Assembly (NCBI GenBank): GCA_963763695.1
Contig: CAVXPM010000001.1
Span: 116,963-180,962 of the forward strand
Source of the DNA: an uncultured Solirubrobacteraceae bacterium
GTDB taxonomy: Bacteria > Actinomycetota > Thermoleophilia > Solirubrobacterales > Solirubrobacteraceae
Direction of reading: 5' to 3'
DNA: 64,000 nucleotides
The first letter of the stretch is position 1. Every line of letters starts with the position of its first letter. The notes below the pieces were generated by a model. It saw only the letters and a list, made by a program, of their open reading frames with translations. It was not told the DNA's origin and did no database searches. Both the position numbers and the translations under genes were made by a program. Shown one piece after another: positions 2,998 through 56,776 of the stretch.

Positions 2998-3774
2998 ATG
3001 CCCATCTCGTTTCCTGACAAGTCCTCTCCGACGGCGCCGCCAGCTTTCGAGGCGCTCGTGGTGGATCGTGATGCAGAGGTGCCGATCGGCATCCAGCTTG
3101 CGTGGGCGCTGCGCTCGCGCATCGGAGACGGTCAGCTGACGCCCGGCCAGAGACTCCCCGGCCTGCGCGATCTCGCCGAGGCCAGCGGCGTCAACGTAAA
3201 CACGGTCCGGGCTGTCTACCAACGCCTCGAGCAGGAGGGCCTGATCGAGAGTCAGCAGGGCAGCGGCACGTTCGTGACTGCCACGCCCCGCCGGCGATCC
3301 TCGGCCGGGACGATCGCCGCCGGCGCAGCCCGAGAGGCCTTCGAGACCGGGGTCGACCCGCGCGAGGTCGCAGCGGCGCTGTACGTGGCGGGCGAGCGTC
3401 GCGAGGACGGCGCAGACGCCGCGGCCGGGCAACGGCGGGCACTGCGCGCACAGATAGCTGCGCTCGAGCGCACGCTGGCGGAGATGGAGGCGGCCTACCC
3501 GGCGTTCGTGCCTGCGCCGGCCGCGGCCGGCGCAGGCATCGGCCCCGCGCTTCTGAGCGCTGCGGAGCTAGAGCACGTGCGCGCCGGGCTGGTCAGGCGC
3601 CTGGCGGCGATCCAGGCGGCGATCGACGCCCAGCTCGGGCGCCCGGCAGCGAGCCAGCCACCGGCGTCCGAGCAGTCGAGCGCGCCCGCCGCGGCGCCGC
3701 AGAGCAGGCGCGCAGCCAAGGCGAGGGTCCCGGCACAGCGAAGCACGGGCCGCCCGGCGCCTGCCGGCACCTGA
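2998..3774 (+). CDS. GntR-family transcriptional regulator (YtrA-like) with coiled-coil/low-complexity C-terminus
   Basis: wHTH: PGQRLPGLRDLAEASGVNVNTVRAVYQRLEQEGLIESQQGSGTFV. ATG at 2998 preferred over TTG at 2950. Confidence 0.9.
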   Translation: MPISFPDKSSPTAPPAFEALVVDRDAEVPIGIQLAWALRSRIGDGQLTPGQRLPGLRDLAEASGVNVNTVRAVYQRLEQEGLIESQQGSGTFVTATPRRRSSAGTIAAGAAREAFETGVDPREVAAALYVAGERREDGADAAAGQRRALRAQIAALERTLAEMEAAYPAFVPAPAAAGAGIGPALLSAAELEHVRAGLVRRLAAIQAAIDAQLGRPAASQPPASEQSSAPAAAPQSRRAAKARVPAQRSTGRPAPAGT

Positions 3775-18658: not shown

Positions 18659-18675
18659 AACAACAACCTCTTTCG

Positions 18676-18800
18676 TCGGCCTGCGGGGTTAGCTGACGGG
18701 CTAGCGCTGAAAGAGCCTGCGCTTCTCACGGTCCCACCGCGAGATTCGCCCCAACAACCTGGGTCCCCCGTTCCCTGACAACTGGTCAAGGACTCGGCGT
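18676..18800 (-). ncRNA. c-di-AMP (ydaO/yuaA) riboswitch
   Basis: Minus strand reads CGCCGAGTCC...GGAACGGGGGACCCA...GGGGCGAATC...CCCGTCAGCTAACCCCGCAGGC, the conserved ydaO core, directly upstream of the NlpC/P60 gene. Confidence 0.92.
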
Positions 18801-18808
18801 TGGCGCGC

Positions 18809-18817
18809 ACGCTAGCA
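18809..18817 (-). promoter_or_regulatory. Extended -10 promoter for the riboswitch transcript
   Basis: TGcTAGCGT on the minus strand, about 8 nt upstream of the riboswitch 5' end. Confidence 0.5.
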
Positions 18818-25511: not shown

Positions 25512-25595
25512 CCGAGCACAACCACAGGTGAGCGACTCCACCCGAGCACCACAGGTGAGCAACTCCGCCCGAGCACGACCACAGGTGAGCAACTC
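25512..25595. repeat. Three tandem 27-30 bp direct repeats
   Basis: CCGAGCAC(A/G)ACCACAGGTGAGC(A/G)ACTC units at 25512, 25542 (3-nt deletion) and 25569. Confidence 0.9.
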
Positions 25596-25598
25596 AAA

Positions 25599-25670
25599 GG
25601 CAGGGCCGCATGCGGCCCTGCCCGGGGGCGCGCATGCGCGCCCCCGCCTGCCGGCGCATGCGCCGGCAGG
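25599..25670. repeat. Three abutting perfect 24-bp palindromes
   Basis: GGCAGGGCCGCATGCGGCCCTGCC / CGGGGGCGCGCATGCGCGCCCCCG / CCTGCCGGCGCATGCGCCGGCAGG, each checked base by base. Confidence 0.95.
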
Positions 25671-25781
25671 AACATCAATCGATCTGACGGGCAAGAGCCA
25701 AGCGAGGCAAGGACGCAGGAAGCGCCGTGTGCTCGGGCACACAAGCGACCGAGGACGTAGCCTCGCGCCGGCTATCGCACG

Positions 25782-26954
25782 TCAGACGCGCTGGATCAGC
25801 GTGCCTGTGCCGAGCCCGCCACCGCAGCACATCGTGACCAGGCCGATCTCCTTGTCTGAGCGCTCGAGCTCGTGCAGCAGTGTGGTGATCAGGCGAGCGC
25901 CGGTGGAGCCGAGGGGGTGCCCAAGCGCCATCGCCCCGCCGTTGACGTTGACGCGGTCCATGTCCGGGCTCAGCTCGCGCCGCCAGGCGGCGACCACGGG
26001 CGCGAACGCCTCGTTGATCTCGAACAGGTCGATGTCGTCGATCTTCATGCTGTTGCGTTCGAGGATCTTGCGCGTGGCCGGAATCGGTCCCTCGAGCATT
26101 TTGACCGGGTCACAGCCGACGGTCGTCTGGTCGACGATCCGCGCGCGCGGGGTGAGACCGAGCGCCTTGGCCTTGTCCGCCGACATCAACAGCACAGCGG
26201 CCGCGCCGTCGGAGATTTGGGATGCGTTGCCCGCTGTGATCTTGCCGTCGGGCTTGAACGCCGGCTTCAGCTGCGAGAGCGCCTCGAGGCTCGTTTCGGG
26301 GCGGATCCCCTGGTCGGTGACGTAGGTGTCGCCGTTGACGCTCATCGGCACGATCTCGCGCTCGAAGCGGCCCTCCTCGGTCGCCTGGTGGGCCAGCCTG
26401 TGTGAGCGCACGGCGAGCTCGTCCAGCTCTGCGCGCGAGATCTCCCACTGGTCGGCGATCATCTCGGCGCCGAGACCCTGCCCGACGATGTTGTGCTTGG
26501 CCATCAGCTCAGGGGTGAAGGCGTAGCCGAAGTCCTCCTGGGTCTTCATGCCCGCCGCGAACGGCAGGTGGCCCATGTGCTCAACGCCCGAGCCGATCAT
26601 CGCGTCGTGTACGCCGGCCGCGATCAGGGCTGCTGAGAAGTTGACCGCCTGCTGCGCCGAGCCGCACTGGCGGTCGACGGTGGTGCCCGGCGTCTCGATC
26701 GGCAGGCCCGCCTGCAGCCATGCGTTGCGAGCGATGTTGAAGCCCTGCTCGCCAAACTGCTGCACGCAGCCGGCGATCACGTCCTCGACCTCTGAGGCGT
26801 CGACGCCCGAGCGCTCGATCACCTCGGTGTAGACCTTGGCCAGCAGCGTGTTGGGGTGGGTGTCCTTGTAGTAGCCCTTCTCCTTGTGCCCGCGTCCAAT
26901 CGGGGTGCGCACTGCCTCCACGATCACTACTTCGCGGCCCTCTGGTTGCCTCAT
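25782..26954 (-). CDS. Acetyl-CoA acyltransferase (thiolase)
   Basis: TVDRQCGSAQQA, NASQISDGAAA, EINEAFA, GHPLGSTG, MCCGGG motifs. Confidence 0.95.
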   Translation of the reverse strand: MRQPEGREVVIVEAVRTPIGRGHKEKGYYKDTHPNTLLAKVYTEVIERSGVDASEVEDVIAGCVQQFGEQGFNIARNAWLQAGLPIETPGTTVDRQCGSAQQAVNFSAALIAAGVHDAMIGSGVEHMGHLPFAAGMKTQEDFGYAFTPELMAKHNIVGQGLGAEMIADQWEISRAELDELAVRSHRLAHQATEEGRFEREIVPMSVNGDTYVTDQGIRPETSLEALSQLKPAFKPDGKITAGNASQISDGAAAVLLMSADKAKALGLTPRARIVDQTTVGCDPVKMLEGPIPATRKILERNSMKIDDIDLFEINEAFAPVVAAWRRELSPDMDRVNVNGGAMALGHPLGSTGARLITTLLHELERSDKEIGLVTMCCGGGLGTGTLIQRV

Positions 26955-33736: not shown

Positions 33737-33809
33737 GCCGGAGTAGCTCAGCTGGTAGAGCACCTGTCTTGTAAACAGGAGGTCAGGGGTTCGAGACCCC
33801 TCTCCGGCT
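33737..33809 (+). tRNA. tRNA-Thr (TGT), CCA not encoded
   Basis: Acceptor GCCGGAG/CTCCGGC, D-arm AGCTCAGCTGGTAGAGC, anticodon stem CCTGT/ACAGG with loop CT-TGT-AA, T-loop GGTTCGAGACC. Confidence 0.97.
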
Positions 33810-43871: not shown

Positions 43872-43899
43872 GCAGGAAGAACCCTGCTGCTTGTGCCTG

Positions 43900-43937
43900 G
43901 TCTGTGGCCGTCCCTTCGGGGGCGGCCACAGACGTTT
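43900..43937 (+). terminator. Intrinsic terminator (15-bp stem, UUCG loop), possibly bidirectional
   Basis: GTCTGTGGCCGTCCC-TTCG-GGGGCGGCCACAGAC followed by GTTT, between convergent genes. Confidence 0.85.
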
Positions 43938-43984
43938 GCGGGAGGAACCGCGCCGGGGCCGAACCGCGCCGGAGCGGCAGAGCC

Positions 43985-55282: not shown

Positions 55283-56776
55283 TCAATCGCGCATCGCGGG
55301 GAACAGCACCACCTCGCGGATCGAGTCGGCCCCGGTCAGCAGCATCACGAGCCGATCGATCCCCAGCCCCACGCCGCCGGTCGGTGGCATCCCCTGCTCG
55401 AGCGCCTGCACGAACAGCTCGTCATAGGGCTGTGACTCCTGCTCGCCCTCGGCCGCGAGGCGCTGCTGAGCGGTGAACCGCTCGCGCTGGGCATCGGCGT
55501 CGATCAGCTCGCTGAAGGCGTTGGCGATCTCCATGCCCCCGGCGAACGCCTCCCAGCGCTCGACCAGGCCCGGCTCGGAGCGGTGCTCGCGCGCGAGCGG
55601 CGAGAGCTCGACCGGGTAGTCGAACACGAACGTGGGCTGGCGCAGCGTGGGCTCGACGTACTTGGAGAGCAGAGCGTCGGCCAGCTGGGGCCAGCTGAGA
55701 TCCGCGGTCTGCATCTCCAGCCCGCGCGCGGCGATCGCCGCGCGCAGCGCCTCGGCGTCGCGGTGGGCCATCACGTCGATCCCGGTGGCCTGCTCGATCG
55801 AGGCGACGAAGCCGATCCTGCGCCACGGCGGCGAGAAGTCAAGCTCGCCTTCGTAGTCGACCGCCCGCGCGGCCGCCGCCACAGCCTGCTCCAGGCGGCC
55901 AGCCTCGATCTCGTAGTCGGCGTAGGCCTCATACCACTCGACCATCGTGAACTCGGGGTTGTGCTTGTGCGAGACGCCCTCGTTGCGGAAGTCCTTGCCC
56001 AGCTCGTAGACGCGCTCGAGGCCGCCGACGATCAGGCGCTTGAGATACAGCTCGGTGGCGATGCGCAGGTAGAGGTCGCGATCCAGCGCGTTGTGGTGGG
56101 TCGTGAAGGGTCGCGCCAGGGCTCCGCCGTAGAGCGGCTGAAGGATCGGGGTCTCGACCTCGATGAACCCCTCGCCGTCGAGGTAGGCGCGCACGGCGGC
56201 GATGATCCGCGCACGCGCCAGGAACAGCTGTCGCGTCTGCTCGTTTGCGATCAGGTCCAGCTCACGCCTGCGATAGCGCGTCTCCACGTCGCTGAGACCG
56301 TGGTGCTTGTCGGGCGGGGGGCGCAGCGCCTTGGCGAGGATCTGAAAGCTCTCGATCCGCAGCGTCAACTCGCCGTGGCGGGAGCGCAGCACGGCCCCGT
56401 CGAGGCCGAGCAGGTCGCCGAGGTCGAGCGACAGCAGGCGCTCGAAGGCCTCCTTGCCGAGCACGTCCAGGCGCGCGTGCAGCTGGATCTTGCCGGTGCG
56501 GTCGACGAGGTCGAGGAACGCCGCCTTTCCGGCGCCGCGGCGCGCCGCGAGGCGCCCGGCGACGCGGTGGCGCTCCTCGGTCTCCTGCCCGTCCTCAAGG
56601 TGCGAGTAGGCCTTGAGGATCGCCGCGATCGGCTCGGCGTCCGCGAACACGTACGGGAACGCGTCGGGGTCGCCTTGGCGCAGGCGCTCGGCCTTGGCGC
56701 GCCGCTCGGCGATCAGCTCCGCCAGGCCGTGTCGCGCCGACTCCTGCGAGGCAGAGGGCTCCTCGGCTCCGCTCAT
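55283..56776 (-). CDS. lysS: Lysine-tRNA ligase (class II)
   Basis: YRRRELDL, LRIATELYLKRL, FRNEG...HNPEFT, GMPPTGGVGLGIDRL. Confidence 0.97.
   Translation of the reverse strand: MSGAEEPSASQESARHGLAELIAERRAKAERLRQGDPDAFPYVFADAEPIAAILKAYSHLEDGQETEERHRVAGRLAARRGAGKAAFLDLVDRTGKIQLHARLDVLGKEAFERLLSLDLGDLLGLDGAVLRSRHGELTLRIESFQILAKALRPPPDKHHGLSDVETRYRRRELDLIANEQTRQLFLARARIIAAVRAYLDGEGFIEVETPILQPLYGGALARPFTTHHNALDRDLYLRIATELYLKRLIVGGLERVYELGKDFRNEGVSHKHNPEFTMVEWYEAYADYEIEAGRLEQAVAAAARAVDYEGELDFSPPWRRIGFVASIEQATGIDVMAHRDAEALRAAIAARGLEMQTADLSWPQLADALLSKYVEPTLRQPTFVFDYPVELSPLAREHRSEPGLVERWEAFAGGMEIANAFSELIDADAQRERFTAQQRLAAEGEQESQPYDELFVQALEQGMPPTGGVGLGIDRLVMLLTGADSIREVVLFPAMRD

Follow-up and report, generated by a model that had tools for sequence, protein, structure and literature searches.

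A lineage-specific family of palindromic hairpin arrays between genes of Solirubrobacterales, with a predicted role at transcript ends

The 64-kb stretch of DNA analysed here (the window; 68.8% G+C) carries, in the 345 bp that separate two convergent genes, an array of three perfect palindromes of 24 bp that directly adjoin each other (Table 1). The array lies 162 nt past the stop of a gene encoding a PG_binding_1 domain protein, which has homologues in Solirubrobacteraceae and Solirubrobacterales MAGs (class Thermoleophilia, phylum Actinomycetota), and 111 nt before the stop of a thiolase gene. Each unit is its own reverse complement, and the three share the centre CGCATGCG. The sequence is exactly as described in the initial annotation, which had reported three perfect GCATGC-centred palindromes with zero spacing. 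Folded as RNA or as DNA, both strands are predicted to form three 10-bp stems with 4-nt CAUG/CATG loops; the DNA fold has an energy of −43.8 kcal/mol (z = −8.3), and the three-hairpin form makes up 87% of the ensemble. The array has no Rfam match at the gathering threshold, the best hit up to an E value of 10 being Atu_C8, whose 19.9 bits fall short of the threshold of 50, and a pattern scan of its surroundings returned no promoter-like or terminator-like sites.

Table 1. Coordinates of the array, of neighbouring elements in the window and of associated motifs at other loci (L numbers)
Feature	Position	Strand	Description
Upstream gene, stop codon	25434..25436	+	570-aa ORF with PG_binding_1 domain; transcript would enter the array
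Tandem repeat	25512..25595		Three units of 27-30 nt
Whole array	25599..25670	.	Three abutting 24-bp perfect palindromes, zero spacer
Unit 1 (P1)	25599..25622	.	GGCAGGGCCGCATGCGGCCCTGCC; 10-bp stem and CATG loop on either strand
Unit 2 (P2)	25623..25646	.	CGGGGGCGCGCATGCGCGCCCCCG
Unit 3 (P3)	25647..25670	.	CCTGCCGGCGCATGCGCCGGCAGG; "last unit" type of the family, CCNNCCGG-YGCATGCR-CCGGNNGG
Array flank	25671..25676	+	AACATC, the window version of the family-specific one-sided AAC(A)GC
Second conserved element	25683..25786		About 100 nt, non-coding
Second conserved element, non-orthologous copy	L064:1832-1935		Abuts a minus-strand stop codon
Convergent thiolase gene, stop codon	25782..25784	-	Gene 25782-26954; transcript would enter the array from the opposite side
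30-bp perfect palindrome	3509..3538		Centre CGCG
c-di-AMP riboswitch	18663..18809	-	RF00379, 76 bits
tRNA gene	33737..33809	+	
Conventional terminator	within 43872..43984		15-bp stem, UUCG loop, then GUUUG
22-bp perfect palindrome	55724..55745		Centre GATC
Flank motif (C)ATCAGC-TTTT-A(T/C)AAG-CATGCG	L048:3010-3290, L117:2870-3150, L101:6700-6850, L003, L033, L041, L047, L095		Beside long arrays
CCGATCG-type hairpins	L033:5100-5130, L041:1241-1272, L076:2586-2617, L085:3657-3687		L076 copy directly adjoins an array
GGTGTATAnCnATnGnTATACACC-type palindrome	L121:4629-4652, L124:4583-4606, L138, L155, L167, L189		Just downstream of the PG-binding gene

Perfect palindromes of at least 16 bp number seven in the window, and three of these are the array units. 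Those with arms of at least 12 nt occur four times against 0.03 expected from first-order Markov simulations, and the analytic expectation for three in-phase neighbouring palindromes is ~1.6e-15. Outside the array, no CATG-centred unit in the window exceeds 9 of 12 pairs. GCATGC itself is found 17 times (17.1 expected), with no sign of restriction-site avoidance. Two of the remaining palindromes, of 30 and 22 bp, do not belong to the CATG family and fall outside the predicted intergenic gaps of at least 40 nt.

Two further elements share the gap with the array. Immediately upstream lies the tandem repeat with the top TRF score in the window, built of CCGAGCAC(N)ACCACAGGTGAGCAACTC units; this repeat is confined to the window, none of the fetched loci containing it, and was dropped as a part of the family. 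On the thiolase side, a second conserved non-coding element forms a long imperfect minus-strand hairpin with a closing stem that overlaps the stop codon of the thiolase gene. Three orthologous gaps (L154, L185 and L193) have the same core over 24 nt, L124 lacks the element, and the copy at the non-orthologous locus L064 has a different yet complementary closing stem. This element has no Rfam match; the only Rfam matches in the window are a c-di-AMP riboswitch and a tRNA gene. Terminators of conventional form are also present elsewhere in the window, one of them listed in Table 1.

The GGCAGG/CCTGCC ends that units 1 and 3 share inside-out had been singled out in the initial annotation as a means of refolding in alternative registers. 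The shared ends are real, but they carry no meaning: inside-out arms occur at 2.4% within arrays and 4.3% between unrelated arrays, which is chance level; they are absent from the orthologous arrays at L124, L164 and L143, and alternative refolding is thermodynamically negligible.

A scan for GCATGC-N18-GCATGC-N18-GCATGC, taking one genome per species, matched at least 120 loci. Among the 120 matches listed, at least 77 loci, in ~66 assemblies counted by accession prefix, have the architecture of the window array: 74 hold chains of at least three RCATGY-centred units, each with at least 10 of 12 pairs, and at three more, two units stand against a contig end or have a degenerate third next to them. 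Two of the 77 are from MAGs labelled just Actinomycetota, the rest from MAGs with the label Solirubrobacterales or Solirubrobacteraceae, and no member from another lineage is found among the matches listed. The other 43 are spread over many phyla and are mostly short tandem repeats whose complementary arms span merely 3–6 nt. The window array thus belongs to a family of extragenic hairpin arrays that is specific to the Solirubrobacterales lineage (Actinomycetota, Thermoleophilia). The reading in the initial annotation had turned on whether similar palindromes, and covariation within them, occur in the clade, and a large clade-wide family with both is present. A full-text literature search returned no description of the arrays, and the family is apparently undescribed. 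In viral contigs, none of 33 pattern matches belongs to the family; three related phage contigs (L207, L209 and L210; 40% G+C) carry scattered, operator-like 24-bp near-palindromes, GAGACAAnGCATGCnTTGTCTC, unrelated to the Solirubrobacterales arrays.

The anatomy of the family was derived from 76 arrays with 292 units at the listed loci. Arrays of three units are the most common (n = 42), followed by those of five (n = 13), four (n = 11), six (n = 8) and seven (n = 1), the minimum of three being imposed by the search pattern; one further chain, of two units, is not of the array family. Since the scan demanded three in-phase GCATGC sites, the statistics of size, spacing and core are biased, and unbiased figures come from non-ascertained units and metagenome loci. 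Unit length is exactly 24 bp in 227 of 321 maximal palindromes, and centre-to-centre spacing is 24 bp at 176 of 215 junctions, nearly all others lying at 23–26 bp. The cores are CGCATGCG (n = 209), TGCATGCA (n = 57) and CACATGTG (n = 17), which together read YRCATGYR. Arm positions 1–6 carry merely 0.2–0.5 bit, and 232 of the 292 units are distinct. Among 66 non-ascertained hairpin units adjoining arrays, 57 have the CATG centre and the rest are mostly one-base variants.

Pairing within the units is almost without exception. Mismatches affect 56 of 3504 stem pairs, 45 of them outermost; internal pairs are mismatched in 11 of 3212 cases, just one being G.T, so that more than 99.6% are Watson-Crick. 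In co-directional (tandem) gene contexts, none of 990 internal pairs is G.T. Terminator stems of Bacillus cereus, by comparison, contain ~5% G.U (PMC5381666), and the near-zero G.T of the arrays therefore implies that an RNA hairpin made from one strand is not the whole constraint.

The stems of one array are also kept different from each other. Arms identical at seven or more of eight positions occur in 1 of 464 pairs within arrays and in 2.75% of pairs between arrays. Units within an array are thus less alike than units of separate arrays, which indicates that stems are kept orthogonal and rules out growth by tandem duplication, in agreement with the earlier remark that simple duplication does not yield such different arms. 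In one genome (L006), separate arrays do have two-unit modules in common. About half of the 76 arrays are bordered on one side by AAC(A)GC. This flank is not a general hairpin feature of these genomes, since only one in a set of 120 perfect hairpins that are unrelated but come from this DNA has it; it is also seen in orthologues of the window array. Array polarity, as defined by the AAC side, has no relation to GC skew, gene strand or the direction of transcription.

Relatives of the upstream PG_binding_1 protein were fetched from 80 metagenome loci and 4 assembly loci. The same gap contains an array in L124 (three units), in L143 (three units), in L200, where unit 3 has collapsed to CCGGCCGG, and in L175, where a single unit, unit 3, is present. 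At L164 a three-unit array lies 0.9 kb downstream of the PG gene, and on contigs L130 and L144 an array begins ~27 nt past the PG stop and is cut off by the contig end. In L104, L124, L143 and L175 an array comes after the thiolase orthologue. At L104, in another neighbourhood, the array lies 9 nt after the thiolase orthologue with its AAC side facing away from it, as in L143; relative to the same genes, the array is inverted at both loci. In ~65 of 76 relatives the orthologous gap has no array, these gaps being too diverged to reveal the clean empty sites or target-site duplications expected of a MITE or insertion-sequence derivative. Orthologous arrays occur in independent Illumina and long-read assemblies, which excludes an assembly artefact.

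Differences among the orthologous arrays preserve pairing. In unit 1 the outer five pairs vary with full compensation (GATCG, GGTCA, GCCCA and GTCCG); unit 2 is identical in four of the five arrays compared and differs in L164 at the outermost base alone; and in unit 3, pairs 3 and 4 vary with compensation. Across the five aligned arrays, changes on both sides affect 6 pairs in 11 cells, and 98.6% of cells are paired. The covariation score was matched by none of 500 shuffles, and slid controls gave at most 1.

Three further comparisons set the stems against four-fold sites of flanking genes. Stem pairs differ at 0 of 30 between L027 and L113 (four-fold-site divergence 0.25), at 2–3 of 50 among L020, L034 and L071 (0.14–0.44) and at 11 of 50, 8 of them fully compensated, between L047 and L095 (0.23–0.34). 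One pair is present in three different Watson-Crick states across L020, L034 and L071. In two of the three comparisons the divergence of the stems (0–6%) is well below that of four-fold sites (14–44%), which indicates that purifying selection acts on the arrays of the sets L027/L113 and L020/L034/L071 and that these arrays predate the species. Together with the compensatory double changes and the 232 distinct self-complementary units, this bears out the selection on hairpin structure proposed in the initial annotation. Orthologous arrays can also differ in whole units, those of L008 and L052 having five and three.

In most relatives the orthologous gap holds one ordinary GC-rich hairpin, GGGGCCGGCCC-GAAG-GCCGGCCCC or a variant. 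It is followed within 3 nt by AACATCAAA in L185 and L189, and by AAACGTCAAAC in L193; in the window, it is the array that occupies this site, followed by AACATCAATCG. The array has thus replaced the canonical hairpin and is positionally equivalent to a conventional 3′ hairpin. Many relatives carry another conserved palindrome in this region, GGTGTATAnCnATnGnTATACACC, of operator-like form (TGTATA...TATACA), which is absent from the window.

With genes called by codon usage (89% coding in the window; start codons approximate), 63 of 76 arrays do not overlap any predicted gene, among them the 57 on which the context test was run. Of these 57, 23 fall in convergent gaps (40%, against 19% of comparable gaps; p = 2.6e-4), a twofold enrichment, 24 in co-directional gaps and 10 in divergent gaps, the last with neighbours that look genuine when their sequences are read, such as acyl-CoA dehydrogenase, malic enzyme and DnaX. 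The arrays sit at gene ends: stop codons are a median of 16.5 nt away, with 26 of 70 gene ends no more than 10 nt off, while gene starts are a median of 58 nt away. At ~11 convergent pairs the array fills the gap to ~2–40 nt from either stop. The neighbouring genes have little in common, their 142 proteins falling into 114 clusters and the 57 upstream genes containing 100 Pfam families. By Pfam, there are no transposase or mobile-element genes among the 57 genes ending at arrays or at the two loci with two arrays each (L006 and L008), and a regular-expression heuristic for an HUH plus Tyr motif found no match in six frames across ~1.4 Mb around 80 arrays. The tails that follow the arrays are not U-rich and contain no U-tract. 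Over 8 nt, sense tails have a mean of 1.9 T and antisense tails one of 1.3 (p = 0.13; means of 1.1–1.9 T overall), and on this ground the arrays are not canonical intrinsic terminators. Coding potential of the 24-nt (8-codon) period was dropped by inspection: the arrays follow stops, ~15% of junctions carry a 1-nt offset, and the arms change in a complementary, not a synonymous, way.

Counts of one array in the 64-kb window, three more in 570 kb of flanking DNA and a handful across 363 kb of unselected metagenome sequence give a density of about one per 60–190 kb, which by extrapolation implies tens of copies per genome of 3–3.6 Mb. At this density the arrays are not the general terminator of these genomes.

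The explanation that best accounts for these observations is that the array is an orientation-independent module at transcript 3′ ends, serving as a read-through barrier and an exonuclease block, and we predict this function with moderate confidence. Since each unit is a perfect palindrome, a transcript from either direction would fold into the same hairpins, each with a 10-bp stem, a CAUG loop and a closing R-Y pair, and the mutual dissimilarity in which the stems of the three to seven abutting hairpins are held would let each fold independently. The gene-end position and the replacement of an ordinary hairpin support this reading, and we infer that the arrays act in RNA, by terminating or stabilising transcripts. 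In the window, the most likely function would be to serve the transcript ends of both the PG-binding gene and the thiolase gene. The array would block read-through, probably with the help of a factor, given the lack of a U-tract, and would also halt 3′-to-5′ exonucleases. The tolerance of inversion at L143 and L104, with identical hairpins on both strands, favours such orientation independence. Of the mechanisms offered by the initial annotation, bidirectional termination or RNA stability is the best fit to this context, whereas a stand-alone small RNA finds no support in arrays that lack an Rfam match and adjoin, in either orientation, genes of over 100 unrelated families.

In its proposed working the family resembles both bidirectional intrinsic terminators and REP/BIME elements, and it is a member of neither. 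Like bidirectional terminators, the arrays are GC-rich hairpins directly past stops, are enriched in convergent gaps and take the place of an ordinary single hairpin at an orthologous site. Unlike them, they have no U or A tracts, and for want of a U-tract they are not intrinsic terminators; they comprise three to seven hairpins instead of one, with an invariant palindromic loop, a stem fixed at 10 bp and essentially no G.U, and some copies lie between divergent genes. Terminator loops are normally free to vary, in contrast to the conserved CATG here. The missing U-tract, the 10 of 57 arrays in divergent gaps, the near-zero G.T, the conserved loop and the low density all count against a transcript-end module. 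An apex that is invariably RCATGY, a length of exactly 24 bp and stems almost free of G.T suggest a protein that reads the tip or a constraint on the DNA palindrome itself.

The REP/BIME elements of Proteobacteria (Escherichia coli, Pseudomonas, Stenotrophomonas) are likewise short, GC-rich extragenic palindromes, regularly spaced and clustered, mainly after genes and between convergent genes. Their palindromy is maintained by complementary mutations (PMC2817692), as in the arrays, and REP325 of E. coli is a partly Rho-dependent terminator and an mRNA stabiliser (bioRxiv 10.64898/2026.03.23.713779), the two roles proposed here for the arrays. REPs, however, have a GT(A/G)G head 5′ of the palindrome (PMC2817692), of which the flank logos of the arrays show no trace, AAC(A)GC standing on one side of about half of them instead. 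Within a genome the arrays have a conserved loop and free stems, the reverse of REPs, and lacking both a GTAG head and a conserved stem sequence they are not REP/BIME elements. They are perfect palindromes through the centre, whereas REPs are imperfect with a non-complementary middle, and they abut with zero linker. BIME units alternate in orientation; array units, being perfectly symmetric, have none that can be defined. [quoted passage not shown] The host, finally, belongs to Actinomycetota rather than Proteobacteria.

A DNA-level analogue of REP/BIME is the chief alternative, one we regard as possible but doubtful. The arrays would then form single-stranded hairpins or cruciforms whose RCATGY tip and AAC(A)GC flank are read by a structure-specific protein, with effects on RNA secondary; candidates are an HUH/Y1 (RAYT- or IS200-like) nuclease that spreads the arrays, or gyrase or a nucleoid protein that uses them. 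Palindromes that are perfect through the centre, with essentially no G.T in any context, agree with this explanation, as do the dispersal of arrays beside 114 protein clusters, the two-unit modules common to separate arrays in L006, the copies in divergent gaps and the inversion at one locus. A one-sided, family-specific flank at the foot of the hairpin recalls the GTAG head of REPs (PMC2817692). A conserved apex on free stems is also the logic of structure-read single-stranded sites. Such sites, among them integron attC, the hairpins of IS200/IS605 and RAYT and the rolling-circle Rep origins, conserve the fold and a few bases at tip or foot, while their stems drift with compensation, as those of the arrays do. 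They come with a recognisable recombinase or nuclease gene, however, and as single sites, not abutting arrays. Near the arrays no such gene was found; the HUH-plus-Tyr heuristic over ~1.4 Mb around 80 arrays was negative, and no transposase lies among the 57 adjacent genes or at L006 and L008. With 232 of 292 units distinct, there is no sign of a master sequence being copied and pasted; the extrapolated number of arrays per genome is in the tens rather than the hundreds; orientation does not follow GC skew or gene strand; orthologous arrays show age and conservation, not rapid flux; and the enrichment in convergent gaps places the arrays where positive supercoiling disfavours cruciforms. The specific suggestion of an HUH/RAYT substrate, made in the initial annotation, accordingly found no support, the GTAG head and stem conservation being missing too. 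Even so, the absent G.T, the invariant tip, the exact length, the one-sided flank and the divergent-gap copies keep a REP-like reading at the DNA level alive.

The RNA transcript-end and DNA-level readings are compatible and not mutually exclusive. As a tentative proposal, the arrays would be a new class of bacterial repeat with a logic opposite to that of REPs: abutting, mutually orthogonal 10-bp hairpins whose invariant RCATGY tip is read, on single-stranded DNA or on RNA, by a putative Solirubrobacterales-specific protein, whose perfect two-strand complementarity is kept by a DNA-level process (for example, templated correction inside the palindrome) in addition to selection, and which replace ordinary terminators at gene ends.

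It is improbable that the arrays are RNA modules that titrate or recruit a protein. In such a module, as in CsrB or RsmZ, each hairpin would offer an identical GCAUGC tip, several copies of an RNA-binding protein would be bound, and particular mRNAs would thereby be marked. One apical motif on variable stems, in three to seven copies per array and with a stem length as fixed as if it were measured, is what such a module would look like, but a function in RNA alone needs neither DNA palindromy nor a palindromic loop nor exclusion of G.U. The arrays, moreover, occur in both orientations relative to the transcribed gene and have no evident promoter or terminator of their own. Small RNAs of the CsrB/RsmZ type are discrete genes whose hairpin series carries one apical motif, and they are not DNA palindromes; the arrays share the hairpin series and the single apical motif but are dispersed at the ends of many unrelated genes.

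A double-stranded operator array, in which a dimeric DNA-binding protein recognises YRCATGYR every 24 bp, has very little to recommend it beyond the 8-bp palindromic core and its strict period: it gives no reason for eight variable flanking positions on each side to be self-complementary and to co-vary, the 24-bp period places successive cores on different faces of the helix, and the arrays are mostly at gene ends, not promoters. A lineage-restricted 8-bp palindromic core of obscure purpose is also known from HIP1, the highly iterated palindrome GCGATCGC of cyanobacteria, which is scattered singly and also lies inside genes; unlike the array core, HIP1 does not cap a longer palindrome that co-varies and does not form arrays, and GCATGC is not over-represented in the window (17 against 17.1). 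Chance or an assembly or sequencing artefact deserves practically no credence, with an expectation of ~1e-15 and the same array at the same locus, with compensatory differences, in independent assemblies from different platforms, despite several short-read contigs that end inside arrays.

Solirubrobacterales are abundant soil bacteria known almost solely from metagenomes, and to our knowledge nothing has been established about how their transcripts end. The arrays offer a concrete, testable element for this, carry REP-like biology beyond Proteobacteria and raise the question of what reads the RCATGY hairpin tip. With hundreds of natural variants of one hairpin design, alike in tip and length and different in stem, they form a ready data set on compensatory evolution without the usual G.U stepping stone. 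In practical terms, their stems are a natural library of strong, non-cross-pairing hairpins for high-GC hosts. Seven contigs (L040, L041, L081, L127, L130, L133 and L144) end within an array; palindromes therefore do disturb assembly, which suggests that the arrays break short-read assemblies.

Other repeated sequences accompany the family. Many long arrays, of five to seven units, are flanked by a conserved (C)ATCAGC-type motif (Table 1), which may represent either another repeat family or a T-tract combined with a promoter-like TATAAG. In L048 and L117 it stands on both sides in inverted orientation, with A and T tracts bracketing the array, so that GCTGATG/CATCAGC could close the whole array; in L101 and L117 the motif is itself tandemly repeated. 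A second recurrent hairpin family in these genomes has the form CCGATCG-N-GATC...GATC-N-CGATCGG, with stems of 13–14 bp.
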